Origin: a virus
Taxonomy: Duplodnaviria; Heunggongvirae; Uroviricota; Caudoviricetes
Strand: one strand, 5' to 3'
IMG/VR virus record: IMGVR_UViG_3300031740_000001
DNA length: 64,000 bases
Positions within the stretch are counted from its first letter, which is position 1, and every line of letters starts with the position of its first letter. Below, piece after piece: positions 17,734-43,567 of the stretch. The position numbers and the translations under genes were made by a program. The notes below the pieces were generated by a model. That model did no database searches. It saw nothing but the letters and a program-made list of their open reading frames with translations, and had not been told where the DNA came from.

Positions 17734-17746
17734 TTGGCGGGCTTGC

Positions 17747-23060: not shown

Positions 23061-23066
23061 ACCGAT

Positions 23067-29044: not shown

Positions 29045-29100
29045 CTCTGTAATCGTGTTAGGATTTAGGTACAAGCAAGAACGAAGACAGGGAGAACGAG
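29045..29100 (+). promoter_or_regulatory. conserved promoter/leader cassette, copy 1 (extended -10 TGtTAGGAT, then TTTAGGTAC, then purine-rich leader, then ATG)
   Basis: ATCGTGTTAGGATTTAGGTACAAGCAAGAACGAAGACAGGGAGAACGAG-ATG. It is one of at least 10 related copies. Confidence 0.55.
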
Positions 29101-29310
29101 ATGAACATCGAGGCTAGCAAGATTCGTCCCGGAATGATCCTCAGCATCTACGGAAACAAAGAGCGGTTCGATGTCGAGGCGGTTCAGGCGAACGAGTTCG
29201 GCGCAGTGATCATCACGAACTGGTCCAACAAGAGCCGCGGACTGAGCAAGGACGAGACGGTCGAGGTCCTCGGATACTTCAACCCCTCCGGAGTTGGGGT
29301 CTACGCTTAA
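29101..29310 (+). CDS. hypothetical protein
   Basis: 69 aa, directly after cassette copy 1. Confidence 0.5.
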   Translation: MNIEASKIRPGMILSIYGNKERFDVEAVQANEFGAVIITNWSNKSRGLSKDETVEVLGYFNPSGVGVYA

Positions 29311-29354
29311 GGGATTCGTCAAATGCCCAGGTAACTGGGCATTTGCCAAATCTG

Positions 29355-29400
29355 CTTAATCGTGATACGATTTAGCTAGACAACGAGAAGGAGAACGAAA
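29355..29400 (+). promoter_or_regulatory. conserved promoter/leader cassette, copy 2
   Basis: ATCGTGATACGATTTAGCTAGACAACGAGAAGGAGAACGAAA-ATG. Confidence 0.55.
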
Positions 29401-29601
29401 ATGACAAAGGACCAGGTAGCCACTGCCGGATCGTTCCTCGTGCTAGTGCGCAACTTTCCCGGAACCGCGCTTCTGCTGGGCAAGGAGCTGTTCGATCTGA
29501 TTGCGATCGCGCAGAAAGTTTACAGCGGCAAGGCTGCGAGCAACACGGATATGATCAAGGTCGCGAAAGCGACCACCCAAATGTGTGACATGCTCGGCTG
29601 A
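29401..29601 (+). CDS. hypothetical protein
   Basis: 66 aa, after cassette copy 2. Confidence 0.5.
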   Translation: MTKDQVATAGSFLVLVRNFPGTALLLGKELFDLIAIAQKVYSGKAASNTDMIKVAKATTQMCDMLG

Positions 29602-29617
29602 GCGCCACCCGTGCTCT

Positions 29618-29637
29618 ACCCGCGAAAGCGGGTAGGG
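29618..29637 (+). terminator. GAAA-tetraloop hairpin (CTACCCGC-GAAA-GCGGGTAG) without a U-tract. It may be an I-shaped terminator or an RNA processing site.
   Basis: It has a perfect 8-bp GC-rich stem. It lies 16 nt after a stop codon and is followed by the conserved GAGGTTCAG. Confidence 0.4.
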
Positions 29638-29673
29638 TGCGGCAGAGGTTCAGACGATGAAGAGGAGAAGGAA

Positions 29674-29886
29674 ATGCATTTGAACATGAGTACCCTGATT
29701 GCCTGGCTTTGTGAGACCTACGATGCGAAGAATATCGTAGGTGGGCGGATCGGCGCGAAGGAGTGGCGTAACGCAGCCTTCGACACGCTGGTGCAGGCCG
29801 CAATGCAGAGCGAGGGATGCACCAAGGAATACGCCGAAACGTGGCTGGCCGAAGAGGTCACGGAGTACTACGCAAGCAAGGGTTAG
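29674..29886 (+). CDS. hypothetical protein (70 aa)
   Basis: GAGGAGAAGGAAATG leader. Confidence 0.5.
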   Translation: MHLNMSTLIAWLCETYDAKNIVGGRIGAKEWRNAAFDTLVQAAMQSEGCTKEYAETWLAEEVTEYYASKG

Positions 29887-29920
29887 CTCGGGTGCAACAC
29901 GATAACGAGGATTTGACAGA

Positions 29921-29975
29921 ATCTCCGTTATCGTGTTAGACTTTAGCTACAAGCAACGAGGACAAGGAGAAGGAA
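29921..29975 (+). promoter_or_regulatory. conserved promoter/leader cassette, copy 3 (with -35 TTGACA at 29913-29918)
   Basis: TTGACA-18-TAGACT, inside CCGTTATCGTGTTAGACTTTAGCTACAAGCAACGAGGACAAGGAGAAGGAA-ATG. A 12-bp inverted repeat, AACACGATAACG...CGTTATCGTGTT, flanks the -35 element. Confidence 0.55.
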
Positions 29976-30125
29976 ATGGAACTGAGCATCAAGGACCTGT
30001 GGAAGATCAAGGAAGCGTTGGGAGTCTTGGATTCTGAATACACGGACGAAGCGGCAGTTGAGCTGATGGGCCGCGTGACCGAAGCGATTACCCGGCGCGT
30101 CGAGGAAGCACGGAACATGTTCTGA
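29976..30125 (+). CDS. small protein (49 aa)
   Basis: Not in the ORF track. Translation: MELSIKDLWKIKEALGVLDSEYTDEAAVELMGRVTEAITRRVEEARNMF. It lies right after cassette copy 3. Confidence 0.5.
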   Translation: MELSIKDLWKIKEALGVLDSEYTDEAAVELMGRVTEAITRRVEEARNMF

Positions 30126-30140
30126 ACGGCTCCCCTAGAT

Positions 30141-30158
30141 GTCCCCCGAAAGGGGGAC
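30141..30158 (+). terminator. GAAA-tetraloop hairpin (GTCCCCC-GAAA-GGGGGAC), followed by GAAGAGGTTCAG
   Basis: Same architecture as the hairpin at 29618. Confidence 0.4.
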
Positions 30159-30184
30159 AAACTGGGAAGAGGTTCAGCACGAAC

Positions 30185-30270
30185 GAACTTCGATTAGGGT
30201 TTCCGCCGAATCAGGATAGGGCTAATCGCCGAAACACGAATAGGGAATCCCGCCGAAACTAGGGAGGCCA
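30185..30270. repeat. three tandem ~23-bp iteron-like repeats (tAGGGnnTCCGCCGAAnC)
   Basis: The copies are ATTAGGGTTTCCGCCGAATC, AGGATAGGGCTAATCGCCGAAAC and ACGAATAGGGAATCCCGCCGAAAC, followed by TAGGGAGGCC. They sit inside a 300-bp non-coding gap. Confidence 0.5.
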
Positions 30271-30345
30271 GCGCGCGGCGAGTATTGCGCGACCGAGAGT
30301 GCCACTGGGGAAAAAGGCAGCGTGTGCAGGGCGTGAATCCTGTGG

Positions 30346-30397
30346 GGAGTGGAGCTGAGTAACGGCAGCCTGTCAGGTTCGAGTCCTGGCCACTCAC
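30346..30397 (+). ncRNA. tRNA-like minihelix (acceptor stem, a short hairpin, canonical T-arm TCAGG-TTCGAGT-CCTGG), no anticodon arm
   Basis: GGAGTGG-AG-GCTG AGTAACGG CAGC-CTG-TCAGGTTCGAGTCCTGG-CCACTCA. The acceptor has 6/7 bp. It is 52 nt long and lies in a non-coding region, 35 nt upstream of gene 30431. Confidence 0.35.
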
Positions 30398-30430
30398 GTA
30401 AGATAAAGACAACGAGGAAGGAAGACGGAA

Positions 30431-30844
30431 ATGGGTTATTCCAGCTCAGTGACAGGCGAGATCTATGTCAGCCCTGTTCCAGCGCCGAATCTGCTCGACC
30501 TGGTGGCGCTGCGGAAAGACCGCAACGTTAGCCGAGCGCTGGAGTGTCTGAAGGTTGAGTTCGAGTTCGATACCACGACGGAGATCGAGACGGACGGAAC
30601 TGAGGTGACACGACGCAAGGTGACTGCCGCAAAGCTGATGACTCGCTGTGAGGGCGTGGAGCATTCTCACTATTACCTGCAAGAAGGTCTGCAAGCACTG
30701 GTAAACAGCCTTGGCAAGAACCGGAAGTACAGCGGCTGGTTCGACTTCCGAGGCGAGGCTGGAGATCTTATGCGATACGCCATCGTCGATGGTGTCGCGC
30801 GCGAGTTCGAGCCGACGATCACGTGGCCAGCGGAGGTGAACTGA
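30431..30844 (+). CDS. hypothetical protein
   Basis: 137-aa ORF with a GAGGAAGGAAGACGGAAATG leader. Confidence 0.55.
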   Translation: MGYSSSVTGEIYVSPVPAPNLLDLVALRKDRNVSRALECLKVEFEFDTTTEIETDGTEVTRRKVTAAKLMTRCEGVEHSHYYLQEGLQALVNSLGKNRKYSGWFDFRGEAGDLMRYAIVDGVAREFEPTITWPAEVN

Positions 30845-30846
30845 CA

Positions 30847-30951
30847 TGCACCTTCCAGGCTGGTTCACCTCGTACATCCTAGGATGGGTGTGCGGCTGGA
30901 TAGCCGCGTCGGTGTTCGTGCTCTATCTGGCGCGAAAGCGTAAGCGCTGAA
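30847..30951 (+). CDS. membrane peptide (34 aa)
   Basis: MHLPGWFTSYILGWVCGWIAASVFVLYLARKRKR. Confidence 0.4.
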
Positions 30952-30964
30952 CAGTTCCCTTGAG

Positions 30965-30984
30965 CCACCTGCGAAAGCAGGTGG
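30965..30984 (+). terminator. GAAA-tetraloop hairpin (CCACCTGC-GAAA-GCAGGTGG), followed by GGAAAAGGTTCAG
   Basis: Third member of the hairpin + GGTTCAG family. It is followed by the promoter TTGACT-16-TGtTATGAT (31009-31036). Confidence 0.4.
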
Positions 30985-31065
30985 TGATAGGAAAAGGTTC
31001 AGATCAATTTGACTGAATCGAAATCTCTGTTATGATGGAGATACGGAAATGACAAGGGAGGGAAA

Positions 31066-31446
31066 GTGGCAACAGGAACTAAATCAAGTGCAGGCAGCAA
31101 ACTTGCTGGTTTCGTCGCGCTAATCGTGCTTCTCGGGTTCGGATACGGACTGGTCAAGCGCATTCCGAGCGATGAGCGATCGGGAGCGTTGTTTTCGGTT
31201 GTTTTCGAATCGAAAACGCGTGTTATTGCAGTGAATATCGTCATTCTTGTGGATGGCGTTCTTGTTCACTCGGCTAAGCCCAGAAAGTCTCCGTGGGAGC
31301 AACTCGTATTGCTCAATAGGGGGCAGACGGCAGTGCTCACCGCAGAGCAAAAGATACCAGCTAGGCTGTCTTGTGCCGTCAACGGTGAGGTTCAGGAGAT
31401 TCGGGAGTTTCCGGGGATCGTGACCTGTGCGTATAGGCGGGCGTGA
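31066..31446 (+). CDS. hypothetical membrane-associated protein
   Basis: GTG start after a GGGAGGGAAA Shine-Dalgarno. Hydrophobic N-terminus: AGFVALIVLLGFGYGLV. Confidence 0.45.
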   Translation: MATGTKSSAGSKLAGFVALIVLLGFGYGLVKRIPSDERSGALFSVVFESKTRVIAVNIVILVDGVLVHSAKPRKSPWEQLVLLNRGQTAVLTAEQKIPARLSCAVNGEVQEIREFPGIVTCAYRRA

Positions 31447-31543
31447 TCTGCTGAACAGAACCCTTGCGCCATCGCGCTAAGCTCGGTGGCGTCTAGGAAG
31501 CGGTTCAGCCGAATCGTGAAATGAAGACAACGAAAGGGAAGAA

Positions 31544-32485
31544 ATGGGAATTCTGATCGGGCTCATCATCTTGACGTTGATCGGGCTTGTTGCGGCAGTG
31601 TTCGTAGCTGCACCTACTCCGGCGAAACCGGAACGCAGGGACGGCTATGGCCGAACGTCTGCAGCAGTTCCCGCTAGCCGGGTGTACTGGGAGCGTGGCG
31701 TTGCTGTTCTGCTGGCAATCGCTGCTTTGTGGTTCGTGTGCTCGATTTCGATCGTGGACGCTCGGGCGCAGAAGGTGCAAACCAGCTTTGGCAAGGTGAC
31801 GGGCGTCAACGGTTCAGGGTTCAACCTGGTCGCTCCGTGGTCCAGCGGTACTCAGTTCTCGACCAGCAAGCAGTGGATCGAGTTCGAGGCCGATGGCAAG
31901 GACGACAAAGAGCCACAGATCAAGGTACGGCTTGCAGGCCAGGCGACGGCTGTTGTCTGGGGCACTGTGTACTACGAGCAGCCTGCAAGTGAGATCGATG
32001 ATCTGTACCTGGACTGGAAGGAAGAGGCTCGTATCCGCGAGAAGTTCGTTTTCCCGCTGGTCCAGCAGGCGCTGAATGAGGCCTTCGGAGTTTATGACCC
32101 GCTGGCTGCCGCAAAGCAGGACGCTGAGGTGCTTTCCACCTATAGCAAGACGGCAACCGAGGCTCTGAGGTCGAAGATCGGCGGCAAGCTTGCTGACGTA
32201 CAGATTCAGCTTCGTGACATCGACTATGACGATGATACGGAGAGGCGTCTGCGGGACATTCAGACCGCTATCGCAGACTTCCGTGTAGCCACACAGAAGG
32301 CCGCGACAGCAGAGCAGATCGCCTTGGCAAATACCCGGATCGCCGCGTCATTGAGCAACGATCCGGTGACTGCGTTCTACCAGTGTTCGCAGATGTGGGC
32401 GGACGTCATCAAGGAGACCAAGCCCGGCACGCTGAACCTAGCGAGCATCTGCAGTCAGTACATCCCGCTAACTGCAACACGGTAA
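31544..32485 (+). CDS. SPFH/band-7 (prohibitin/stomatin-like) domain membrane protein
   Basis: An N-terminal TM helix is followed by QKVQTSFGKVTG...VWGTVYY... and a coiled-coil, AEQIALANTRIAAS, typical of the SPFH family. Confidence 0.6.
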   Translation: MGILIGLIILTLIGLVAAVFVAAPTPAKPERRDGYGRTSAAVPASRVYWERGVAVLLAIAALWFVCSISIVDARAQKVQTSFGKVTGVNGSGFNLVAPWSSGTQFSTSKQWIEFEADGKDDKEPQIKVRLAGQATAVVWGTVYYEQPASEIDDLYLDWKEEARIREKFVFPLVQQALNEAFGVYDPLAAAKQDAEVLSTYSKTATEALRSKIGGKLADVQIQLRDIDYDDDTERRLRDIQTAIADFRVATQKAATAEQIALANTRIAASLSNDPVTAFYQCSQMWADVIKETKPGTLNLASICSQYIPLTATR

Positions 32486-32528
32486 CAAGGAGCGCGCAGG
32501 GCACCTCAGAGACGGCCCTGCGTGCACT

Positions 32529-32575
32529 CAGAAATTGTGTTATGATTTAGGCAACGACAACGGAAGGAGCAAGAA
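32529..32575 (+). promoter_or_regulatory. conserved promoter/leader cassette, copy 4
   Basis: ATTGTGTTATGATTTAGGCAACGACAACGGAAGGAGCAAGAA-ATG (extended -10 TGtTATGAT). Confidence 0.55.
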
Positions 32576-32941
32576 ATGAGCACTGCACCGACGCGTGAGG
32601 AAGGCCGCTGGAACGAGGTCTACATTGACCTCTACGCACTTACTCCGGACCAGCGCGAAGAGTTGCTTCGTAGCCGCGTTGCGGCAGGGATTGCTCTGCT
32701 CAACGAGCGGGAGTGGTCTGCGCCGTGGTACTTCCAGGTGAACGTGAACACGTTGGACATTGAGGATCCGTATTACTGCGTTCTTGGCCAGCTGTTCACT
32801 GAGGACGGCTATATGGAGGGTTTGCGGGCGCTCAATTTGATGATGGGCATCCTGTACGGGTTCTCAGGTGCCTACCCGCAGGCGCTCACGAGCATCTGGT
32901 GTGAAGAAATCCTCAAGCTTCGCGAAAATCACGTACAATAA
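32576..32941 (+). CDS. hypothetical protein
   Basis: 121 aa. Confidence 0.5.
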   Translation: MSTAPTREEGRWNEVYIDLYALTPDQREELLRSRVAAGIALLNEREWSAPWYFQVNVNTLDIEDPYYCVLGQLFTEDGYMEGLRALNLMMGILYGFSGAYPQALTSIWCEEILKLRENHVQ

Positions 32942-33020
32942 GCACAGCTTCAACGGCCTGCTCTCGTTTAGGGACGACAGCGGACCGTTGGAGAAGTTCT
33001 TATCGTAAAGGAGAACGAGA

Positions 33021-33248
33021 ATGGGCATGACGTGGGGTGAATTCGCTGCGCTGATAGGGTTTCCGCCCCAAGAGATCGAGGGGGACTGGGACTACTACGG
33101 CAGGGAGTGGGTAGAATTTCGCCAGTGGGCAGGGTTCCGCTGGGATGATGACCATGTCGCACCGGACAAGCCGATAGGCACCGACAAGGCGTTTCAGCTG
33201 CTTTTGCTTCGTATGGGGCAGCTCGGAATGTTCAAGGAAAAGGAGTAG
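33021..33248 (+). CDS. hypothetical protein
   Basis: 75 aa with a TATCGTAAAGGAGAACGAGA-ATG leader. Confidence 0.5.
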   Translation: MGMTWGEFAALIGFPPQEIEGDWDYYGREWVEFRQWAGFRWDDDHVAPDKPIGTDKAFQLLLLRMGQLGMFKEKE

Positions 33249-33252
33249 GAGA

Positions 33253-33465
33253 TTGGGAAATCTTCCGCCAGCTGGTTCCTGGGAAGGTAATTGGGGCGCG
33301 AATCAGCCTTATCAGTCCAAGGGTCCGGAGGGTAATTGGTCAACCAACAACAAACCGCCGAAAAAAGGCGGGCGCGGTGGTTGCCGAAACCTTATCTTTT
33401 GGGTGATCGCGATCCTCGCGGTCATCATCTGCTTGGCGAATCTCGCTAGTCACAGCCACTTCTAG
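33253..33465 (+). CDS. small membrane protein (non-ATG start)
   Basis: C-terminal TM helix LIFWVIAILAVIICLANL. A TTG start follows AAGGAG. Confidence 0.4.
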   Translation: MGNLPPAGSWEGNWGANQPYQSKGPEGNWSTNNKPPKKGGRGGCRNLIFWVIAILAVIICLANLASHSHF

Positions 33466-33473
33466 GAGGAAAA

Positions 33474-33560
33474 ATGAGTTGGATTGAGGGATTAGTGCAG
33501 GTAGTTGCCATTATTGTAGGCGGCGTTATTGCATTAGCATTGATTTACAAGCTTCTCTAG
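33474..33560 (+). CDS. membrane peptide (28 aa)
   Basis: TAGGAGGAAAAATG Shine-Dalgarno. Translation: MSWIEGLVQVVAIIVGGVIALALIYKLL. Confidence 0.4.
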   Translation: MSWIEGLVQVVAIIVGGVIALALIYKLL

Positions 33561-33566
33561 CAAGGC

Positions 33567-33639
33567 GCGGGCGTAGCTCAGCTGGCAGAGCTTCCGACTT
33601 TTACTCGGAATGTCGCAGGTTCGATCCCTGCCGCCCGTA
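33567..33639 (+). tRNA. tRNA-Lys (anticodon UUU)
   Basis: GCGGGCG-TA-GCTC-AGCTGGCA-GAGC-T-TCCGA-CTTTTAC-TCGGA-ATGTC-GCAGG-TTCGATC-CCTGC-CGCCCGT-A. It is 73 nt with no encoded CCA. Confidence 0.8.
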
Positions 33640-33675
33640 CGTAAGGACATCATCGAAACAGAAAAGGAGAGCACC

Positions 33676-34215
33676 ATGGGTCTTGACCACGGTTTGCGGT
33701 ACGGACAGCCTGCACCCAACGAGGACGGTGTTGACTGGAGCGATGACGCAGCGTCTCGGGCGTATTTCGAGGCGTACCGGACCTGGCGCGAGGCTGTCGA
33801 GATCATCGACTGGCGCAAGGAAAATCACATCCATGCCTGGTTTGTACACAATGTGCAGGCTGACGTGGATCAGTGCGAGGACGCGATCGTCTCGAAGGAG
33901 AAACTTGCGGAGTTCGTTCGCCTCTGTGAAGAGATGATTGCGGGCTGCGAGCTAGTCCCTGGTGACGTCTACAACGGAGAGACCTTTACACCTGCTACGG
34001 GGTGGGTCACGAACTATGAATCGGGCAACGTGCTCAGTGCAGACTCACAGGCGCTTTGCGAGCGTCTCATGCCCACGCAGAGCGGTTTTTTCTTCGGGAG
34101 TACTCAGTACAACGAGTGGTACCTGAAATCGCTCCAGAATGCCGTACAGGCCGTTAAACCGGTACTGGAGAAGATGGCAGACGACGACACCGTCATCTAC
34201 TGGTCCAGCTGGTGA
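33676..34215 (+). CDS. hypothetical protein
   Basis: 179 aa from ATG after a GAAAAGGAGAGCACC Shine-Dalgarno. Confidence 0.5.
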   Translation: MGLDHGLRYGQPAPNEDGVDWSDDAASRAYFEAYRTWREAVEIIDWRKENHIHAWFVHNVQADVDQCEDAIVSKEKLAEFVRLCEEMIAGCELVPGDVYNGETFTPATGWVTNYESGNVLSADSQALCERLMPTQSGFFFGSTQYNEWYLKSLQNAVQAVKPVLEKMADDDTVIYWSSW

Positions 34216-34295
34216 TTTTTGGCCGCGTGAACCGCGATGCTCACCGCCTCTATGGGAACTGGCCCGAGGCAACGAGCAGGGATGTGGGAGGCCAT

Positions 34296-34333
34296 AAGAA
34301 AGGGAGCCCGTTAACGGCGGGCTCCCTTTCTTA
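34296..34333. terminator. rho-independent (bidirectional) terminator
   Basis: AAGAAAGGGAGCCCG-TTAACGG-CGGGCTCCCTTTCTT. Confidence 0.6.
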
Positions 34334-34371
34334 TGCTATACTGGTGTTACGATAACGAAAAGGAGGAAGAA

Positions 34372-34737
34372 ATGGACATCGAAAGTACTCAGTGTCCTGA
34401 ATGCGGTCGACTCAATACACTTCGTATTGAAAATGTGTTAGACGCTAAGCCGATTGGCGATTTTTCGCTTGCAGGTGCAGCGATGAAGTTTTCAGCACGT
34501 AGCAGACCTAAACTAGTATGCGCGGAATGTCCATATCAGAACCTCGGCGAGTATGACGGCAGATACGCGGTTTTCCAGCCAGAGGTGAAGGAAGTTAGCT
34601 TTCCAGCGCCACTGCCGATCAAGGAATCACAGCACTGCACGTCCAAGGAGTGCCCTTATACGATCAGCCACACGGCAACTTGGTGCGGTTACGAACAGCC
34701 GCGTAGGTGCGGCTGTCCGTACTGCTACCCGAAGTAG
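34372..34737 (+). CDS. Cys-rich protein with multiple zinc-ribbon motifs
   Basis: CPECG...CAECPY...CTSKECPY...CGCPYCYPK. It is preceded by a GTGTTACGATAACGAAAAGGAGGAAGAA leader (cassette-like). Confidence 0.5.
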   Translation: MDIESTQCPECGRLNTLRIENVLDAKPIGDFSLAGAAMKFSARSRPKLVCAECPYQNLGEYDGRYAVFQPEVKEVSFPAPLPIKESQHCTSKECPYTISHTATWCGYEQPRRCGCPYCYPK

Positions 34738-34750
34738 GAGAAGGAGAAAC

Positions 34751-35051
34751 GATGTTAGTTGATCTACCAGAGAATTGGTCGAGTTGGGAGCCGGAAACTG
34801 AGGACTACTTCCGATCTCTTCGGCTGCTCACTTTGGGCGGAAGGATTGAGAACCCTGTCCGGCTCTCAAAAGGCGTCTATATGTCTCATTTCAACTTTGA
34901 TCATGAGATCGAGCATCTGACCTGGGACAAGGATCACTACGAGCTTGACTACGCTAGCGCGGTATGTCGGCTGTGGGTTCACGAGATATATGGAGGTGTT
35001 GAGGACGAGTATGAGGGGTGGATTTACCCTCAAATCGTTCAAAACGCCTAA
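34751..35051 (+). CDS. hypothetical protein
   Basis: 100 aa with a GAAGGAGAAACG-ATG leader. Confidence 0.5.
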
Positions 35052-35117
35052 GAGAACTACGGCGTCTGCGATCACTGGTCGCAGATCCTGGTCAAGTTTC
35101 CGCACATTCAGACCAGC

Positions 35118-35321
35118 ATGATCCCGTACCTGATTCGGGTTGCTCCGGTCCGTAAGGCTGAGCAGCCTGCGTATGGCGGCTGGCGCTGGCACAAGTGGGG
35201 TCCGTACATCGGAGCCTTCAAGGATCACGCCAAGCGTAGCGAATACCTTTATGACACGTTAGAAGTCGAAGAGGTCTTCGTTTACGAGGTGCACGAGATG
35301 CGGTACCCGTGGCCTAAGTGA
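35118..35321 (+). CDS. hypothetical protein
   Basis: 67 aa. Confidence 0.5.
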   Translation: MIPYLIRVAPVRKAEQPAYGGWRWHKWGPYIGAFKDHAKRSEYLYDTLEVEEVFVYEVHEMRYPWPK

Positions 35322-35399
35322 TCAAAGGGGGAGTTCGGATTTCCGGGCTCCCCTTCGTCGTGCTAGGATTAACGCAGGATCAAGAAAGGAGCAAGATAT

Positions 35400-36215: not shown

Positions 36216-36228
36216 GTCCGGTGCTTCC

Positions 36229-36781: not shown

Positions 36782-36981
36782 CGAAGATGCTGAGCTGGGC
36801 GAACGGAAAGCACGTTGGCTTCAATCGGCGGTTGATTGGCTATCTGCAGCTTCAAGAGCTGAAGCGCGGGCGCTCCCACGCGATGCGCAGACGCAACCGG
36901 GCTCGGGAAGCCGAGGCGGTGCGTCAGGAGATTAGAGCGGAGGTGATCTACATGGGAGATGGAGGTGATTCTCGTGGGTGA
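36778..36981 (+). CDS. hypothetical basic protein (67 aa)
   Basis: ATGA overlap with the stop of the 36515 ORF. Translation: MTKMLSWANGKHVGFNRRLIGYLQLQELKRGRSH... Confidence 0.4.
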   Translation: MTKMLSWANGKHVGFNRRLIGYLQLQELKRGRSHAMRRRNRAREAEAVRQEIRAEVIYMGDGGDSRG

Positions 36982-37092
36982 GGACGGCGGCTAACTCAAC
37001 GCGCTGGCTGGGGAAACCTGGCCAGCGCGATTTTCGTAGTGTCGTGTATAATGGGGTTATTCGAATATACGAAAAAGGAAAGGATAAAGAAA

Positions 37093-37308
37093 ATGACCAA
37101 GATAGGGCGTGCACCAGGCTCTCCAATCCAGCTCAAGGATTCACGCGAGACACTATCGTCTCAAGAAATTCCCATGACGGTAAAGAAATCTGCTCAGCTG
37201 GTCGTGTGCGAATACGTCCAGGCCTGGCACGCAGGAGACTCCGAAGAGGATCGGATTGCAGTCGCTAACGAACTTCTTGAAATTCTCGGGCTGCTGGAGC
37301 GGCGGTGA
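37093..37308 (+). CDS. hypothetical protein (71 aa)
   Basis: GAAAGGATAAAGAAA-ATG leader. Confidence 0.45.
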   Translation: MTKIGRAPGSPIQLKDSRETLSSQEIPMTVKKSAQLVVCEYVQAWHAGDSEEDRIAVANELLEILGLLERR

Positions 37309-37577
37309 GCCGTCGCGGTCCTGGACCTCATACCGTGTGGGCTGGTGTCGTCATTAAATTGGATGACGGCACCACTCATGCAGTGGAATTTCGGGCCGGT
37401 CTGGATAATGTGGTGTTTGCTGATATCGTCCTGGCGCGGCGGATTGATACTCCCACGATCGTGAAAATCGAAGGGAAAGGCCGTTACTGGACCGAAGGTG
37501 CGAATATGGGGCCGGATGTGTTCAAACAAAAAGAATTGCCCGAAGGGCAAAAATCTATTGAAGGGAAAGTTTTATGA
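37305..37577 (+). CDS. hypothetical protein
   Basis: 90 aa with GTGA start coupling. Confidence 0.45.
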   Translation: MSRRGPGPHTVWAGVVIKLDDGTTHAVEFRAGLDNVVFADIVLARRIDTPTIVKIEGKGRYWTEGANMGPDVFKQKELPEGQKSIEGKVL

Positions 37578-37813
37578 AGCAGGCCGGTGGCTGTGAATCG
37601 CTGAACTGCATTCAGGTTGACGTGTACACGGGGGAATATCTGGCTGAGCCTGTGGTGCGTGTTCGCTCCACAGAAACTCATACGGTCATGCAGGCCAGGA
37701 TCTCGGAGTGGCGCATGTTCGTCGAACAGGTCAGAGCAGGCGACTGGAACCACGTGAGTACGGATTTCGAGTTCTTGCTTTCAGGAATTGCGGCGGTTTC
37801 CGGTGATAAGTAG
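37574..37813 (+). CDS. hypothetical protein
   Basis: 79 aa with ATGA coupling. Confidence 0.5.
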   Translation: MKQAGGCESLNCIQVDVYTGEYLAEPVVRVRSTETHTVMQARISEWRMFVEQVRAGDWNHVSTDFEFLLSGIAAVSGDK

Positions 37814-38108
37814 TAAAACCTATACGGAGTACGGCGTTTTCGAGGACGCGGACTTCTGGGAGCCTATCTTCGCTAGCGGCGAGCTTCCTGAGTCTATGCG
37901 CAACATCGTTGATGAGCCCAAGGATGGTAGTACCGGGCTCTCGCTATGGCGCAGTTACAAGTGGGCTGAGCTGCAGAACGGAGAGCGGGCCAAGGACGTT
38001 CTCAAGGTCGACAAATACGGCCTGATGATCGTTCAAAAGCGAGTAATCACCGAGAATCCGTGGACTCGTGTCACCATTGAAGAAATTGAGGCGGCAAGAC
38101 GATCATGA
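37788..38108 (+). CDS. hypothetical protein (a small terminase subunit candidate by position only)
   Basis: 106 aa, two genes upstream of the large terminase. No motif supports the call. Confidence 0.4.
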   Translation: MRRFPVISSKTYTEYGVFEDADFWEPIFASGELPESMRNIVDEPKDGSTGLSLWRSYKWAELQNGERAKDVLKVDKYGLMIVQKRVITENPWTRVTIEEIEAARRS

Positions 38109-38299
38109 AAAAGTTCTCGATCAAGCTAGATTCGTTCGTCGCGAGCGATGTTGCCGCGACAGGTGATTTGGCATCTTACGAACGTCGTGCGCATGACGGA
38201 CCCGTGGATTACGTGGTAAAGCGCGATGGAAAAGAAGTCCTTCGTGTCACGGCGAGCCACATTCTCTATGTGGAAATCGCTGAAGTGTCAACTATCTGA
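38105..38299 (+). CDS. hypothetical protein
   Basis: 64 aa with ATGA coupling. Confidence 0.45.
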   Translation: MKKFSIKLDSFVASDVAATGDLASYERRAHDGPVDYVVKRDGKEVLRVTASHILYVEIAEVSTI

Positions 38300-38367
38300 T
38301 CATGCCAACTTGACATCTGTGCTATCCTATTTATCAAATTTCGATTTGATAGATGGGAGTGAGTACT

Positions 38368-38562
38368 ATGTCAAGGAAAATGCAGCTCAAGGTGATGAGC
38401 GCGGGCGTGCTCGCTTTCATCGTCATCGGAGTGACTACGGTGGCCGTGGCGCTCGATCGTTGGGACATCTACACCCAGTACGACCAGACGATTTACTACG
38501 GCGCGGCCTTCGTGATCTTCGTGGTTGGCCAGCTGATGAGACGCCTTGTATCGCGGAAATGA
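38368..38562 (+). CDS. small membrane protein
   Basis: MSRKMQLKVMSAGVLAFIVIGVTTVAVAL... and a second hydrophobic helix. Confidence 0.45.
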   Translation: MSRKMQLKVMSAGVLAFIVIGVTTVAVALDRWDIYTQYDQTIYYGAAFVIFVVGQLMRRLVSRK

Positions 38563-38625
38563 TTCATTACCGTAAAGTGAGGGTTAGACCTGGTCTAGCC
38601 CTCATTTTCTATTACGGAGATAGCG

Positions 38626-40212
38626 TTGGCACGATCCCAGCTTGAAGCGTCGTCCATGGCCGGAAAGACCAGGGCGCAGATTTTCGCTGAGCGGGCCACC
38701 CCACCGGAGATGCGCTGGCGCAGGGATCCTGTCGCGTGGGCCGAGGAAAGGGCAGGGCTGGAGCTGTGGAGCAAGCAGAAAGAGATTCTTCGCTCATTGG
38801 TGGACAATCGGAACACAGCGGTCAAGAGCTGCCACAGTGCGGGGAAGAGCTTCATATCTTCCGTGGCTACGTGCTGGTGGCTGGACGTTCATTTGCCTGG
38901 TACAGCACGTGTGGTTACGACTGCGCCCACGTCGGCCCAGGTAGATGCCGTTTTGTGGTACGAGATCAACAAAATGCACCGAAAGCTGGGGCTGCAGGGT
39001 CAATGCAATCTTCGTGAGTGGTACATCGGATCTCAGCTGGTCGCGCTCGGCCGAAAGCCTCCGGACCACCAGCAAGCCGCTTTCCAGGGGCTGCACGCTG
39101 AGTTTCTGCTGGTCGTTTATGATGAGGCGTACGGAATCCCGCGTAATCTCTGGACAGAGGGCAGCTCACTGGCGTCAAACGCCAAGGCACGTCAGCTTGC
39201 AATCGGCAACCCGGACGGGCCAGGGGCATTTCAGGAGAACTGCGGCGATGGCGGATGGAATGTCATCCACATCAGCTACCGGAACACGCCCAACTTCACT
39301 GGTGAGACAATTTCGCTGGAGTTGTCCGACATGCTCATTCACCCGGATTGGGTTGATGAGCGGAGGAAAAAATGGGGCGAATCGAGCGCTCTCTTCGTCA
39401 GCAAGTGCGAAGGGGACTTCCCTGCTGTAGGTGGTGACCCCTGGCAAGTCATTCCGCGTGCGTGGCTGGACCAGTGCCTGTTTCTCGACTACCCAGCAGG
39501 TCAGCAGCCAATTGAGGCCGGAATTGACGTCGGCAAGACGCATGACCGGACCGTGGTTACGGTGCGCGAAGGCAAGAAAATCACTCATATCGAAACCTTC
39601 GTCAATCCCGACCCGATGCAGACGGTTGCCCAGCTCGCGAACGTTTTGCGTGATCATAACGTTCAAACCGCCAAGGTGGATAGCATCGGCATCGGGTGGG
39701 GCATCTACGGGCGCTTGCGCGAGCTGTCCAGCGTGGACAATACGACGTCAGCCTTCACCACGCACAGCGCGAATGTGGTGCCGATCAACGTCTCGCTTAG
39801 CCCGACCTACGGCAATGAGCACCTCTACTACAACCGGCGATCGGAAATGTGGTGGCTTGGCCGCGAACTGTCCCGCGTCAAGGCGTGGGACTTGTCCGCC
39901 TTGCCGATGGACCAGCAGACCGACTTGCTGCATGAGCTGACCATGGCGCGGTTTGAGATCGTGGACAGCCAGGGCAAGGTGAAGGTCGAGAGCAATGAGC
40001 TGATCATCAAGCGCCTCGGCAACTCACCCGACATCGCGACAGCCGCATTGCTGGCGTTCGTGCCTGCAAGCTGGGCTGGCGACACGTCTACGTCTACAAT
40101 GCTGGAGACGCCTTCCTTGATCGGGTCGTTCAGCGCGTTCGATGCGATGGTTCCGGCCAGTGGAGCGATGGGCGGGCTCGGCATCGGGGGGAGCAAGGCG
40201 TGGTACGAGTGA
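38626..40212 (+). CDS. terminase large subunit
   Basis: 528 aa. An N-terminal ATPase-like segment (VKSCHSAGKSF..., Walker-A-like, and LLVVYDEAYGIP, Walker-B-like) plus an acidic C-terminal nuclease-like region. It is located upstream of the portal and capsid module. The TTG start has a GGAGA Shine-Dalgarno. Confidence 0.65.
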   Translation: MARSQLEASSMAGKTRAQIFAERATPPEMRWRRDPVAWAEERAGLELWSKQKEILRSLVDNRNTAVKSCHSAGKSFISSVATCWWLDVHLPGTARVVTTAPTSAQVDAVLWYEINKMHRKLGLQGQCNLREWYIGSQLVALGRKPPDHQQAAFQGLHAEFLLVVYDEAYGIPRNLWTEGSSLASNAKARQLAIGNPDGPGAFQENCGDGGWNVIHISYRNTPNFTGETISLELSDMLIHPDWVDERRKKWGESSALFVSKCEGDFPAVGGDPWQVIPRAWLDQCLFLDYPAGQQPIEAGIDVGKTHDRTVVTVREGKKITHIETFVNPDPMQTVAQLANVLRDHNVQTAKVDSIGIGWGIYGRLRELSSVDNTTSAFTTHSANVVPINVSLSPTYGNEHLYYNRRSEMWWLGRELSRVKAWDLSALPMDQQTDLLHELTMARFEIVDSQGKVKVESNELIIKRLGNSPDIATAALLAFVPASWAGDTSTSTMLETPSLIGSFSAFDAMVPASGAMGGLGIGGSKAWYE

Positions 40213-40279
40213 TTCAGGAAACTCTGAACAACCGCAGGTGAGTTCAGGTTTGTGCCAAGTTTCCTGAATTCCTTGCAAT

Positions 40280-40327
40280 CTTCGTTATGGTGATGTAGAG
40301 TAGAGATTAGACGAAGGGAGAACGGCA
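40280..40327 (+). promoter_or_regulatory. conserved promoter/leader cassette, copy 5
   Basis: GTTATGGTGATGTAGAGTAGAGATTAGACGAAGGGAGAACGGCA-ATG. Confidence 0.5.
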
Positions 40328-40507
40328 ATGAGGCTTCAAACGCTAAGGGTGAACTGCGACGACTACTGCAGCGATTGCGGAAGGTGTCACGACTTCGCAT
40401 CTCGCGCGATCAACTGGGGCGAGATCGCTCCGAAGTGCCAGATTGGTAGTCTTGACGACAACGATCTCATGGTCGAGTGCCAAGGCGGACACAGCGACTA
40501 TGATTAG
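40328..40507 (+). CDS. Cys-rich small protein (59 aa)
   Basis: MRLQTLRVNCDDYCSDCGRCHDF...CQIGSLDDNDLMVECQGGH. Confidence 0.45.
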   Translation: MRLQTLRVNCDDYCSDCGRCHDFASRAINWGEIAPKCQIGSLDDNDLMVECQGGHSDYD

Positions 40508-40547
40508 CAGCGAGTTTCTTTCATGGTGATGGGGGTTTGACATTCCC

Positions 40548-40594
40548 ATCACGGTGATGTAGACTTTAGGCAGACGAGGAAGAGGGGGAAGAAA
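40548..40594 (+). promoter_or_regulatory. conserved promoter/leader cassette, copy 6
   Basis: CACGGTGATGTAGACTTTAGGCAGACGAGGAAGAGGGGGAAGAAA-ATG. Confidence 0.5.
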
Positions 40595-40735
40595 ATGACA
40601 ACTCGATGGGATGTCGTCATCTGGATGTGGGAGCACCCCTGGTCAATCGCACTTAACGCGCTGATCTGGTTCGGAGCTACCATATGGCTCTACTTTTCAG
40701 GGAAAAAGCGGTTCAATCGCAGGAACGGACGCTGA
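40595..40735 (+). CDS. membrane peptide (46 aa)
   Basis: MTTRWDVVIWMWEHPWSIALNALIWFGATIWLYFSGKKRFNRRNGR. Confidence 0.4.
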   Translation: MTTRWDVVIWMWEHPWSIALNALIWFGATIWLYFSGKKRFNRRNGR

Positions 40736-40806
40736 GCAGCTTCAGGACGAGCCCAGAAATGGGCTCGGCTGTGGAAGTTCAGATGACAAGGAAAAGGAGC
40801 AAGAAA

Positions 40807-41223
40807 ATGCCGTACACAGGATACTCCAGCTATCTGACCAGCGCTTTCGAGACTACTGAGGAAATGGTCTCCAAGGCAAAAAATGTTCTTGATGGTGTCG
40901 ATTTCGATACCATGGTTGGTACTGGACTTTCTGGCGGGCTCGTGGTTCCGTTGCTCGCACGGATGCTCGATAAGAAATTTGCATTGATCCGTAAGTCTGG
41001 CGACAGCAGCCACCGAGAGCGTGAGGTGGAAGGTAGCGTGGGGGAGCGATGGATCTTTGTGGACGACTTCGTTTCCACTGGTGCGACGCTCGAAAGAGTG
41101 CAACTGACAATGAAGGACGTTCAGAAGGGTCAGCCTTACGGTTGGGAAGCGTTCACCACGGAGTACGCAGGCACCTATCAGTACGCGCGATCCAATTTTG
41201 TCCGTCCTGGTTGTCAGTTCTAG
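40807..41223 (+). CDS. phosphoribosyltransferase (PRT type I)-like protein
   Basis: It has the PRPP-binding signature IFVDDFVSTGATLERV (hydrophobic-DD-x-x-TG-x-T). An AAGGAGCAAGAAA-ATG leader precedes it. Confidence 0.5.
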   Translation: MPYTGYSSYLTSAFETTEEMVSKAKNVLDGVDFDTMVGTGLSGGLVVPLLARMLDKKFALIRKSGDSSHREREVEGSVGERWIFVDDFVSTGATLERVQLTMKDVQKGQPYGWEAFTTEYAGTYQYARSNFVRPGCQF

Positions 41224-41259
41224 TCTTCATTATCGAGACGAGGTTGATTTGACAATCTC

Positions 41260-41306
41260 GTCTCGGTAATGTAAACTTGAATCAAGCGAAGAGAAGGAGC
41301 AAGAAA
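41260..41306 (+). promoter_or_regulatory. conserved promoter/leader cassette, copy 7
   Basis: CTCGGTAATGTAAACTTGAATCAAGCGAAGAGAAGGAGCAAGAAA-ATG. Confidence 0.5.
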
Positions 41307-41507
41307 ATGGACATCAAGTACCCGAACGTCACGGTTAAGCTGGTCGGTACAGACGGCAATGCGTTCGCTCTTATGACGCTGGTGCGCAAAGCTATTGCGA
41401 GTGAGGTCAGCTACGAAGCAGCTAACGATTACGCCGAGGAAGCGATCAACGCGGAATCGTATGATGCTTTCCTCGCGCTGAACATGCGCACCGTGAACGT
41501 GATCTGA
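41307..41507 (+). CDS. hypothetical protein
   Basis: 66 aa. Confidence 0.5.
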   Translation: MDIKYPNVTVKLVGTDGNAFALMTLVRKAIASEVSYEAANDYAEEAINAESYDAFLALNMRTVNVI

Positions 41508-41519
41508 AAGGAAAAAGAA

Positions 41520-41747
41520 ATGGTTGAACTAGTCAGGTTCGGAGCGTACGAAGTCGAGGTCAAGGAGCTTCTGGGAGGCGTTCAGGCGATTTTCCAGTTT
41601 GAAAATGGCTACGGCGCTTCAGTCGTTCAGAGCAGACTGTCCTACGGCGGTGATAGCGGTCTCTGGGAGCTAGCAGTGTTGAAGTGGGACGGCGGAAAAT
41701 CGTCGCTCTGCTACAGCACGGAGATCGCGAATGACGTGATCGGCTAG
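41520..41747 (+). CDS. hypothetical protein
   Basis: 75 aa with a GAAAGGAAAAAGAA-ATG leader. Confidence 0.5.
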   Translation: MVELVRFGAYEVEVKELLGGVQAIFQFENGYGASVVQSRLSYGGDSGLWELAVLKWDGGKSSLCYSTEIANDVIG

Positions 41748-41975
41748 CAGACTCCACAGCAAATCGATGCGCTTCTGCAGCGTATCCAGGCACTATAAGG
41801 CCGAAACCGATCGCCGGGAGGCAGAGCGGTCTACGGGTAAAGCCCGTGCTGACGATGGCCAAACATCGAAAGGAATTACTATCGAAGGATGTGCTAAAAT
41901 GGAAAACGGTTTTGATACCGACCCCGAGTTCGTGATCATCTCAATGCCCCCTGTCAAGAAAAACGAAGACAAGGA

Positions 41976-42149
41976 GAAGGTAGCGGATGGGGAAAAGCAA
42001 AAAGCCACCGAACATCGGGAAAGTGATCAAGGCCGATGACGGCTACGGCATCATCGGCAAGATAGGCCGGAAGTTGTTCGGCCGAAAGACCGGCTGGGAC
42101 GACCCAGGCCAATACAACGGCCCGCGTACGGACCGGCGAGGCAAGGGAC
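41976..42149 (+). CDS. small basic protein (57 aa)
   Basis: CAAGGAGAAGGTAGCGG-ATG Shine-Dalgarno. Translation: MGKSKKPPNIGKVIKADDGYGIIGKIGRKLFGRKTGWDDPGQYNGPRTDRRGKGQNN. It overlaps an alternative ORF at 41767-42039. Confidence 0.35.
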
Positions 42150-42440
42150 AAAACAACTGAACAAAAGCCCGGGTGCGAGCGTTCAACGATCTCCCCCGGG
42201 CCTTATACAACTCGATAAGATGGATTCCCGAGCTTTAAGGATCCTGATGGGACGCTGAAAGCCGCGTAGTCTTGGCCCGAGCTGCGCGTGAGAAGACACA
42301 AGGGACGCTGAGCGCGAGTTCCAACCTTGTGCGAGGACGCGGAACACGGCATGTTGGATGCCGATCGGGCCTTCAAACTTGCTTCACACGGGAAACCGTG
42401 TTACGATAAAGGAAGAAGAAAACGACACGAGGAGGAAGCC

Positions 42441-42605
42441 ATGAACGAGGTTTCTCGCACCGCAAACCAAGGCGAACTGGAGCGTTGTGCAGATGGCTGT
42501 GGCCAGGTTGTGGCTGCTACCCTGATGATGCCCGTGATGGTGGACGGCAAGGAGATCGTGACCTGCCTGTTCTGCCACGTTGAGGCCAAGCGGATCTTCA
42601 TGTGA
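42441..42605 (+). CDS. zinc-ribbon small protein (54 aa)
   Basis: CADGCGQ...CLFCH motif. A GTGTTACGATAAAGGAAGAAGAAAACGACACGAGGAGGAAGCC-ATG cassette-like leader precedes it. Confidence 0.45.
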   Translation: MNEVSRTANQGELERCADGCGQVVAATLMMPVMVDGKEIVTCLFCHVEAKRIFM

Positions 42606-43084
42606 TCGAGGAATGGGAGAACGAAGCAATGGAAAATCTCTCAATCGCGGATTACGCCACGGGGACTCTGTTCCCCGTGCGTAACGTCTGTGGAGATTCA
42701 CGCTGCATGGTTGACCACGGAAGGTCGATTCTGCAGCTGCGCTGGTACTACAGCGAGCCGACTACGGTGTTTGCGCTGGCTGGCGAGGATGCGGAGACAA
42801 GCACGCCGCAGGATTTCATCGTAGGCAGAGAACTACTGCTCACAGCCCTTCGATCAGGTACTGGAACTGGATTTCCGGTCGTGGGCGAAGGCAACGTGAT
42901 GTGTCAGGTGATCAAGAACAATCGGAGCGCAATTGCGATCGGGTTCAACGAGGGTTTCATCATCCTTGCCGACCGAAACGCTCTCACGGAGTGGTTGATG
43001 GGCACTTATGTCCACGTTCCGCCTGACAAAGAAGAGGCCATCCTCGACCTGGACCGCGTGATCGCTGAACTGCTCTACAGGTAA
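42602..43084 (+). CDS. hypothetical protein
   Basis: 160 aa with ATGA coupling. Confidence 0.5.
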   Translation: MIEEWENEAMENLSIADYATGTLFPVRNVCGDSRCMVDHGRSILQLRWYYSEPTTVFALAGEDAETSTPQDFIVGRELLLTALRSGTGTGFPVVGEGNVMCQVIKNNRSAIAIGFNEGFIILADRNALTEWLMGTYVHVPPDKEEAILDLDRVIAELLYR

Positions 43085-43103
43085 ACATCACGATAAAAGA
43101 GAA

Positions 43104-43137
43104 CCGCTCATCCCGAAAACGGGGTGGGCGGTTTTTC
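43104..43137 (+). terminator. rho-independent terminator
   Basis: CCGCTCATCCC-GAAAAC-GGGGTGGGCGG, followed by TTTTTCTG. Confidence 0.55.
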
Positions 43138-43162
43138 TGTCTTCATATCGTATGATCCTCGC

Positions 43163-43567
43163 ATGTCGTACGAGAGCTTCAGTCTGGGCCAGCTGATTCT
43201 CATTACCGTGTTTTATTTCGGTGCCGTGCACCGGGTGACACGGCTATGGACGCGGGACGGCCTACCGCTTATTAAGGTCCCGCGTGAAGCGTTTATCCAG
43301 CGTTGGGGCGTTTACGATGACGACGAAGATAAGTCGACATCGATAAACGGAAAAAACACTAACATCGTCATGTCGAGTCTGGCCTACCTCTGGGAATGTG
43401 ATTGGTGCAGCTCGGTTTGGGTCGCCGCTGGGCTGGGATGGCTTACGTGGACGTGGCCTCACGTCATGTTCTGGCTGCTCGCGGGACTTTTCGCATCGTC
43501 CCTCACCGGTACGTGGGCGATCGCAGAAAAACTCATCACCGTAATGACGAAAAAGCACGAGGAGTAA
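43163..43567 (+). CDS. membrane protein (3-4 TM)
   Basis: MSYESFSLGQLILITVFYFGAV... and WVAAGLGWLTWTWPHVMFWLLAGLFASSL. Confidence 0.5.
   Translation: MSYESFSLGQLILITVFYFGAVHRVTRLWTRDGLPLIKVPREAFIQRWGVYDDDEDKSTSINGKNTNIVMSSLAYLWECDWCSSVWVAAGLGWLTWTWPHVMFWLLAGLFASSLTGTWAIAEKLITVMTKKHEE

Follow-up and report, generated by a model that had tools for sequence, protein, structure and literature searches.

In the viral record IMGVR_UViG_3300031740_000001 (IMG/VR; Caudoviricetes), similar sequence blocks recur immediately before small genes between positions 29,045 and 43,165, which raises the question of what these blocks are and whether each of them is a single unit. The stretch analysed here, referred to as the window, comprises 64 kb (55.5% G+C) and is a portion of a tailed-phage genome. 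An earlier note had described at least ten copies of one cassette, composed of an extended -10 promoter, a TTTAG box, a purine-rich leader and an ATG. In all likelihood the repeats are about a dozen promoters for the host RNA polymerase carrying a housekeeping sigma factor (SigA/HrdB, sigma-70 family), placed before small genes, as judged from sequence comparison. The phage appears to be uncultured, with a host in the Actinomycetota and a lineage known from metagenomes alone; the actinobacterial host is supported because the promoters fit the SigA consensus and one site is a candidate for a leaderless mRNA.

The existence of a repeated gene-proximal family, far above chance, was confirmed. All 12 coordinates given in the earlier note carried the sequences described, and a mechanical repeat finder recovered the family unguided, as six 38-nt copies (D1; 29041, 29348, 29919, 32523, 35346 and 42384), five copies of the leader (D2) and eight copies of AAGGAGAAnGAAAATG (D3). 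Enrichment was evaluated in 57 noncoding segments (4130 nt in total), taken up to 80 nt upstream of each gene and in gene orientation according to crude gene calls; 500 dinucleotide-preserving shuffles and the antisense strand of the same segments were used as controls. The extended -10 pattern TGnTAnnnT was found 14 times (1.9 ± 1.4 expected) and the bipartite pattern TTGnnn-N16-18-TAnnnT also 14 times (1.0 ± 1.0 expected), counts that none of the 500 shuffles reached, and neither pattern occurred on the antisense strand.

Related contigs were obtained from the portal protein, a protein database and exact-protein look-ups: L001-L005 via the portal protein, L006, L007 and L008 via an SPFH protein, and L010-L015 via the terminase, for which 2029 homologues were obtained. 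Three of them (L006, L007 and L010) have 54-58% G+C, encode proteins 68-92% identical to those of the window, and have gene order and intergenic architecture in common with it. A scan of viral contigs with CGTGTTAGRNTTTAGSTA gave zero hits, and a metagenome scan with GTGTTAGRNTTTAGSTA gave chance hits only, in unrelated low-GC contigs.

Promoter anatomy was described from 37 sites (window, n = 11; L006, n = 12; L007, n = 7; L010, n = 7), selected by a rule that was not trained on the window, namely TAnnnT accompanied by TG, by a -35 match or by both, and located before a called gene. In the matrix anchored on the hexamer, the -35 TTG was present in 30-35 of the 37 sites, and the consensus was TTGaCa, a spacer of 16-18 nt and YGTGn-TAnnnT. 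C or T was found at -17 in 36 sites, G at -16, T at -15 and G at -14 in 29 sites each, T at -6 in 21 and A at -4 in 28, and T never appeared at -9 or -8. The start context was equally regular, with C or T at -1 (31/37) and A at +1 (28/37), exactly 7 nt past the hexamer; each column from +2 to +22 had T in only 0-2 of the 37 sites, and the distance from hexamer to start codon was 26-48 nt, mostly 26-37 nt. The TTTAG box, previously set apart as a distinct element, consists of the final hexamer T together with the discriminator, leading into the C/T-A start; in the 57 segments its form TTAG[GC] was weakly enriched, barely above chance (11 against 5.9 expected; 16/500 shuffles).

The two recognition elements were found to trade off against each other. 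Perfect TTGACA hexamers occurred at 29913, 40537 and 41249, and where TTGACA was perfect (40537, 41249 and their orthologs) the TG was displaced by one base, whereas sites with a correctly placed TGn had TTGCGG, TTGCCA, TTGCTT or nothing recognisable at -35; the -35 was weak or missing at 32518, 34334 and 35340. Such a trade-off is expected for housekeeping-sigma promoters. The hexamer variants (TAGGAT, TAGACT, TACGAT, TATGAT and TAAGCT) agree with the usual actinobacterial -10, which has the form TAnnnT or TAGRRT, and the bases before TGn match the known extended -10 context TRTGn. In 24 orthologous pairs, identity was 87% at the TTG, 83-100% from the extended -10 through the hexamer (the 100% at the hexamer T, A and T is forced by anchoring and hence is not evidence; the other values count) and 75% at +1, as compared with 29-62% upstream of the -35 and 45-79% in the leader. 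The proposal of SigA-type promoters with an extended -10 therefore appears to be borne out by the bipartite geometry with its 16-18 nt gap, the strand and position specificity, the C/T(-1)A(+1) start context, the trade-off and the footprint of conservation among orthologs.

Downstream of the promoters lies a T-poor leader of the pattern ACGA..GGAG..AAGAAA-ATG, which includes a Shine-Dalgarno sequence and has a predicted length of 20-31 nt, up to about 42 nt. Its T content was 4.9% at promoter-driven genes, against 16% at other genes and 22% genome-wide, and the folding energy from -25 to +20 was -2.9 kcal/mol for promoter genes and -3.6 for genes with a leader after a hairpin, against -7.35 kcal/mol for the rest (p = 6e-4); being T-poor and weakly folding, the leader is best read as an unstructured, putatively strong translation-initiation region. 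The same purine leader was also found 3' of promoterless hairpins, before genes 29674, 30431, 31544, 40807 and 41987, whereas the promoters at 31009 and 42379 have different leaders and the one at 43151 has none. For this reason the description as a single cassette was abandoned, and promoter and leader appear to be two separable modules. Leaderless mRNAs are common in actinobacteria.

The sites recognised in the window, with orthologous positions where found, are the following.

29036..29100, + strand: promoter and leader; TTGCGG-17-TGT-TAGGAT, predicted +1 A29071, T-free leader, ATG 29101; ortholog L006 5384
29343..29400, + strand: promoter and leader; TTGCCA-17-TGA-TACGAT, predicted +1 A29378, ATG 29401; ortholog L006 6183
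29913..29975, + strand: promoter and leader; TTGACA-18-TGT-TAGACT, predicted +1 A29949, ATG 29976; orthologs L006 6908, L010 2415
31009..31065, + strand: promoter; TTGACT-16-TGT-TATGAT, predicted +1 A31043, GTG 31066, other leader; ortholog L007 1015
32518..32575, + strand: extended -10 promoter and leader; TGT-TATGAT, weak -35 CTGCGT, ATG 32576, with the conserved-loop hairpin 32493-32524 before it; orthologs L006 10990, L007 4327
34334..34370, + strand: overlapping extended -10 pair and leader; TGC-TATACT and TGT-TACGAT, without -35, directly 3' of a U-tract terminator hairpin; ATG 34371
35340..35399, + strand: extended -10 promoter and leader; TGC-TAGGAT, ATG 35400; orthologs L006 12160, L007 6153
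40273..40327, + strand: promoter and leader; TTGCAA-17-TAGAGT, ATG 40328; orthologs in L006, L007, L010, L012 and L015
40537..40594, + strand: promoter and leader; TTGACA-17-TAGACT, predicted +1 A40572, ATG 40595
41249..41306, + strand: promoter and leader; TTGACA-17-TAAACT, predicted +1 A41284, ATG 41307
42379..42440, + strand: promoter; TTGCTT-17-TGT-TACGAT, predicted +1 A42414, ATG 42441; near-invariant in five genomes
43148..43165, + strand: candidate promoter of a leaderless mRNA; TATGAT (43151-43156), 6 nt, ATG 43163
28223..28299, + strand: promoter and long leader, outside the flagged interval; TTGCAA-17-TGG-TAAAGT, ATG 28300; ortholog L006 4558
24513..24572, + strand: promoter and leader, outside the flagged interval; TTGACG-16-TGC-TAGGCT, GTG 24573
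5325..5388, - strand: promoter and leader on the leftward arm; TTGCAT-18-TGC-TAGGCT, then AACAACGAGAAGGAGAATGAG and ATG
16553..16628, - strand: leftward promoter candidate; TTGCAG-16-TGC-TAACCT and a purine leader

The list of copies in the earlier note stood in part. Two copies taken for partial, 31020 (TTGACT-16-TGT-TATGAT) and 42394 (TTGCTT-17-TGT-TACGAT), are both complete promoters; 34343 is a pair of overlapping extended -10 elements without a -35, and 43143 is a TATGAT followed by 6 nt and an ATG, with no leader. A promoter at 33000 was rejected, this site being a leader only, without a -35 and with a hexamer (TATCGT) that is not kept in L010. Copies that had been missed are 35340, within the interval; 24513 and 28223, before its start; and, on the - strand of the other arm, 5388 and about 16628. 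The 43151 site adjoins a canonical U-tract terminator (about 43100-43140) and precedes a gene for a DUF1360-family membrane protein; its layout is repeated in L001, and L010 has TATGAT, 6 nt and GTG.

Most promoters directly adjoin, or share sequence with, the RNA hairpin at the 3' end of the gene before, and the 89 nt ending at the predicted start site had a mean folding z-score of -2.8 relative to shuffles. At three promoters and their orthologs the -35 lies in the apical loop of a hairpin with a stem of 12-19 bp, whose 3' arm is the promoter spacer and whose stem begins 5-10 nt past the upstream stop codon. A small hairpin, CACGG-GAAA-CCGTG, is contained in the spacer of the 42379 promoter. 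The hairpins lying over or against other window promoters are given below.

29330-29353: hairpin upstream of the 29343 promoter, abutting the -35
29896..29937, + strand: hairpin over the 29913 promoter, 10 nt past a TAG stop, -35 in the apical loop; two-sided change in 4 of 24 pairs (3 orthologs)
35329-35355: hairpin at the 35340 promoter, covering the -35 position
40521..40557, + strand: hairpin over the 40537 promoter, -35 in the apical loop; two-sided change in 5 of 23 pairs
41228..41271, + strand: hairpin over the 41249 promoter, 19-bp stem, 5 nt past a TAG stop, -35 in the loop; two-sided change in 7 of 24 pairs

Ortholog trios preserve G.U pairs that on the opposite strand would be A.C mismatches. 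Because the pairs covary and the G.U pairs are kept, the three hairpins that enclose a -35 appear to be selected as + strand RNA, in transcripts from the upstream gene, and not as a protein-binding palindrome; a protein operator as the cause of the inverted repeats around the -35 was rejected, as the arms vary in sequence and covary. The tail past each of these stems is the -10 and discriminator, UAGACUUUAG-like and moderately U-rich (4-5 U in 10 nt). Stable hairpins follow genes, most of them without a U-tract, and canonical U-tract terminators were seen at some window sites only. The hairpins enclosing a -35 would terminate the upstream message or stabilise its 3' end while overlapping the next promoter, and sequence left unconstrained by either element would be used by the other. 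Embedding in a hairpin is the one non-standard feature of otherwise ordinary promoters. Bacterial polymerase can remain on DNA after termination at a hairpin and restart at the nearest promoter (PMC11347151); a restart of this kind, which is speculation by analogy, would give the overlap of hairpin and promoter a purpose.

If the sites act as housekeeping promoters, sigma region 4 would recognise TTGaCa, and regions 3.0 and 2.4 would recognise YGTGn-TAnnnT, 16-18 bp downstream. RNA would begin at the conserved A, 7 nt past the hexamer, and the resulting 5' leader, nearly U-free and unable to fold, would leave a Shine-Dalgarno sequence of the AGAAGGAG type exposed 6-9 nt before the start codon. 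With a promoter of its own and an exposed Shine-Dalgarno sequence, each small gene would be transcribed singly and translated efficiently, and the strong, independent expression proposed for these genes is predicted in this sense. We infer the sigma factor used, the start sites, the promoter strength and the roles of the hairpins (termination, or protection of the 3' end of the upstream message), and the promoters are probably early or middle ones.

Several points weigh against a reading of the blocks as host housekeeping promoters. A scan of 26-45 kb with a generic sigma-70 consensus found 8 hits (8.8 expected), without numerical excess, but all eight were on the + strand and the four with 10 of 12 consensus positions were all intergenic; the signal therefore resides in position and strand and not in raw count. 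The 37-site matrix is partly circular at the TAnnnT, -35 and TG columns, which were selection criteria, and the independent evidence comes from the columns outside the selection, from the shuffles and from the antisense strand. A regulatory role is also conceivable for the hairpins over the -35. The class-1 spacers (AATCTCyGTTAyCGTGT) are 75-80% identical among 29036, 29343 and 29913, a likeness that exceeds what a promoter needs and could reflect an overlapping regulator site or a recent duplication. Finally, a phage-encoded sigma factor may lie in the approximately 15 kb of the source contig outside the window.

It is improbable that the blocks are mainly sites for a phage-encoded regulator (operator- or stoperator-like) that overlap or mimic promoters, the recognised element being AATCTCyGTTAyCGTGT and the CGGTGATG spacers. 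The conservation of paralogous spacers beyond the need of a sigma factor and the small helix-turn-helix proteins encoded by related contigs would agree with such a regulator, but there is no fixed-length motif, conservation being bipartite with a gap of 16-18 nt; the bases that precede TGn agree with the TRTGn context, the spacers are wholly different between classes (for example, 42379 and 40537), and a spacer that lies in a hairpin changes together with its partner arm. Somewhat less improbable, although still unlikely, is that a promoter-leader segment was recently copied along with insertions the size of a gene (moron-type accretion, the boundary repeats being recombination sites), and that the similarity goes back to this copying rather than to selection acting on each copy independently. 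Shared descent of some copies is likely, because the cassettes have a mean identity of 64% (maximum 80%), against 53% for downstream coding sequence and shuffled controls. In addition, L006 has an extra gene (7307-7444) that comes with its own promoter and leader and with another copy of the flanking hairpin element. In the window, promoter 40537 is separated from the phosphoribosyltransferase gene by an additional gene of 46 codons (40595-40735); in L006 and L007 the ortholog of this promoter would drive the phosphoribosyltransferase gene directly. Nevertheless, orthologous sites retain the copies in contigs with a protein identity of just 68-77%, the conservation footprint is centred on the functional hexamers, which argues for selection, and copying explains the origin of the copies and not their function, so that it is compatible with a promoter role.

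The idea that the elements serve chiefly as RNA structures within read-through transcripts (as terminators, stabilisers or sites of processing), with an incidental likeness to -35 and -10 elements, is scarcely credible. It draws on the long covarying + strand hairpins with conserved G.U pairs over three sites, and on the stop-codon-embedded hairpin element and the hammerhead-like fold carried by adjacent intergenic regions. Against it, TTGACA is conserved although it lies in an unpaired loop; TAnnnT, TGn, the 16-18 nt spacing and the C/T(-1)A(+1) context are common to sites with and without hairpins, and genes 29976, 40595 and 41307 would be left behind strong hairpins without promoters of their own. 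Very improbable as well is a reading of the promoters by a phage-encoded or alternative host sigma factor in place of the housekeeping one: part of the 79.6-kb source contig is outside the window, and the -10 hexamer resembles TAGRMT and not TATAAT, but TTGACA-17-TAnnnT with TGn is the housekeeping consensus, and the proteins scanned included neither a sigma factor nor an RNA polymerase.

The preferred reading, housekeeping promoters before small genes, has several precedents. T4, T5 and SPO1 have many strong early promoters for small genes that are read by the host sigma factor, with conservation extending past both hexamers; the host phylum and the details of the consensus differ from those arrays. 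Morons are reportedly autonomous promoter-gene-terminator units of lambdoid and other phages. Like them, the units described here consist of small genes of unknown function with their own sigma-70-type promoter and a flanking hairpin, and are present or absent among close relatives (the L006 unit at 7307-7444 and the window gene at 40595-40735); a cluster of moron-like units lies between the terminase and portal genes. Unlike morons, they form long tandem arrays, and their downstream hairpins mostly lack a U-tract, so that a terminator role is putative.

Cluster O mycobacteriophages have multiple predicted SigA-like promoters, some of them predicted to be leaderless (PMC4351075). The present sites resemble these actinobacteriophage promoters in being intergenic and gene-oriented, with -35 and -10 elements, some predicted leaderless, found by sequence and conserved within a cluster; they differ in being more numerous, every 0.3-3 kb before single small genes, with a prominent extended -10, in being coupled to a thymine-free leader and, in several cases, in lying within the hairpin of the gene before. 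A likeness to the start-associated sequences (SAS) and extended SAS (ESAS) of mycobacteriophages had also been suggested. In Cluster K, SAS is a fixed 13-mer, GGGATAGGAGCCC, located 3-7 bp before start codons, and is not a promoter, and ESAS are 17-bp imperfect inverted repeats with a cluster-specific consensus and without RNA-type covariation (PMC3203893). Oriented repeats before the ATG starts of non-structural genes, including a Shine-Dalgarno core, are indeed common to both systems. A kinship was not upheld, since the 13-mer GGGATAGGAGCCC had no match with up to 2 mismatches in the 64 kb and, unlike ESAS, the inverted repeats differ between copies, change in a compensatory manner and include G.U pairs on the + strand.

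Other RNA elements were observed in the same intergenic regions. A three-tier hairpin of 51-61 nt on the + strand, CUGA(A/G)C..CUCCC..[variable GC hairpin]..GGGAAGAG..GGUUCAG, was found in 15 copies in four genomes (window, n = 5; L006, n = 4; L007, n = 3; L010, n = 3). Of its cells, 82% were paired (34-50% in slid controls), and 12 pairs covaried; in 13 of the 15 copies the upstream gene ends at the UGA of the outer stem, and GGUUCAG has an alternative pairing with GAAUC at the start of the spacer of the next promoter. The element CUGAAC...GGUUCAG was rejected as an efficient terminator, because the following genes 29674, 31544 and 40807 have no promoter of their own, and it is probably a processing or insulating element. 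The second element is a type II hammerhead-like structure, GGCC-GAAA-[helix III]-GUC-[helix I]-CUGAnGA-(U)-GGCC, a candidate ribozyme found once in the window and 11 times in eight related loci (12 copies in nine loci altogether), always intergenic and before a small gene. It has the layout of a three-helix junction with helix II open; GAAA, GUC and C-GA-GA were invariant in the 12 copies, the core including the A15.1-U16.1 pair and C17, and U4 (the second base of CUGAnGA) was C in one copy. Most copies have an extra U after A9. Its cells were 91% paired, against 19-42% in slid controls, and helix I covaried at 5 of 6 pairs. Hammerheads flanking single phage genes are known (PMC3088659). The Rfam hammerhead models gave no hit to this element at E <= 10 on short stretches, including the canonical-looking L002 copies, and Rfam at gathering thresholds and at permissive E-values returned tRNAs only, with no family for any hairpin or for the hammerhead-like element. 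A third family consists of hairpins whose stems covary and whose 12-nt loop, YACMUCAGAGACGG, is conserved; they lie a short but varying distance before TGTGTTATGAT-type promoters, and the conserved loop suggests a specific binding partner. The positions of these elements are given below.

29598-29653, 30122-30177, 30947-31002, 31451-31508 and 40732-40782, + strand: three-tier hairpins of the window
41797-41862: hammerhead-like element of the window
L001 4-69, L006 18655-18720, L007 12822-12887, L002 (two), L011 (one or two), L013 (three) and L014 (two): hammerhead-like copies in related contigs
32493-32524: hairpin of the window with the YACMUCAGAGACGG loop
L006 about 8630, 9480 and 10950, L007 about 1450, 2790 and 4285, and L010 about 5160: hairpins with the same loop in related contigs

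Four further noncoding regions were recorded. At 38300-38379, about 60 nt (TTGACATCTGTGCTATCCTATTTATCAAAT..ATTTGATAGATGGGAG) are near-invariant in the window, L006, L007, L010, L012 and L015; this block, before a small gene upstream of the terminase gene, contains TTGACA, a TGnTAnnnT too close to it and an 8-bp palindrome, and may be a late-gene control region. At 30185-30400, three or four direct repeats, TAGGG-N3-5-CCGCCGAA(A/T)C, are followed by a tRNA-like stretch with a GGTTCGAGTCCTGG T-arm and an acceptor-like stem, without an ARAGORN or Rfam call, and the region is conserved in L006 and L007. Long noncoding stretches rich in tRNA-like arms (GGTTCGAATCC and similar) occur at 16553-18266 (- strand) and 42161-42380, where ARAGORN called two tRNAs only, one of them with a 20-nt insertion; comparable clusters lie between the terminase and portal genes at L007 13093-13855, L010 11851-12276 and L013 13463-14385. 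An AT-rich noncoding region of 566 bp (22501-23066), after the primase-polymerase/helicase gene, has repeated TTCTAACGGATT / CCTAGCGGATTTCCTAACGG units and an equivalent at L006 124-1123, and is a candidate replication origin.

Genes in the window run leftward at about 4-19 kb and rightward at 19-64 kb. Pfam matches identified a DNA polymerase A, a primase-polymerase/D5 helicase, an SNF2 helicase, a phage Mu F-like protein and an ADP-ribosyltransferase domain, the last of these in a fusion protein; a PD-(D/E)XK nuclease and a 2'-5' RNA ligase-like protein are also encoded. The genes used as landmarks are the following.

12414-14177, - strand: DNA polymerase A (Pfam), 30-35% identical to those of Gordonia, Microbacterium and Arthrobacter phages
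19260-22109: primase-polymerase/D5 helicase (Pfam)
31544-32485: SPFH/Band-7 protein, the exact protein being also on record on a 79.6-kb metagenomic contig
38626-40212: large terminase subunit (PHROG 2)
40807-41223: phosphoribosyltransferase gene (Pfam/PHROGs)
43571-45184: portal protein, 25-29% identical to portals of Gordonia, Microbacterium and Arthrobacter phages

A DNA near-identity search of 29-33 kb against 50,697 phage records gave zero matches, and a relative of the SPFH/Band-7 protein was not found in viral contigs. For the small genes behind the promoters, Pfam and PHROGs gave no function other than the phosphoribosyltransferase, and one PHROG family of unknown function.

A broader interpretation, possible but doubtful, is that the intergenic regions form one system that makes single-gene messages with a common unstructured leader from an array of tiny genes. 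Such messages would arise by three routes: by initiation at a promoter inside the 3' hairpin of the previous gene, where the terminated polymerase would restart (the -35 as loop, the spacer as 3' arm, the -10 and TTTAG as tail), by cleavage at the stop-codon-embedded three-tier hairpin (CUGAAC...GGUUCAG), or by cleavage by hammerhead ribozymes. If this were true, promoters embedded in hairpins would constitute a new kind of regulatory element, and so would the CUGAAC/GGUUCAG hairpin.

Taken singly, the promoters are of the textbook kind, and any specialist interest lies in their superimposition on covarying hairpins of the upstream gene. For uncultured actinobacterial phages, the set of promoters and leaders, validated by comparison, offers a means of annotating transcription units, support for the host and compact expression parts, and the presence of two more RNA elements at the equivalent intergenic position suggests a joint organisation of termination, processing and re-initiation.

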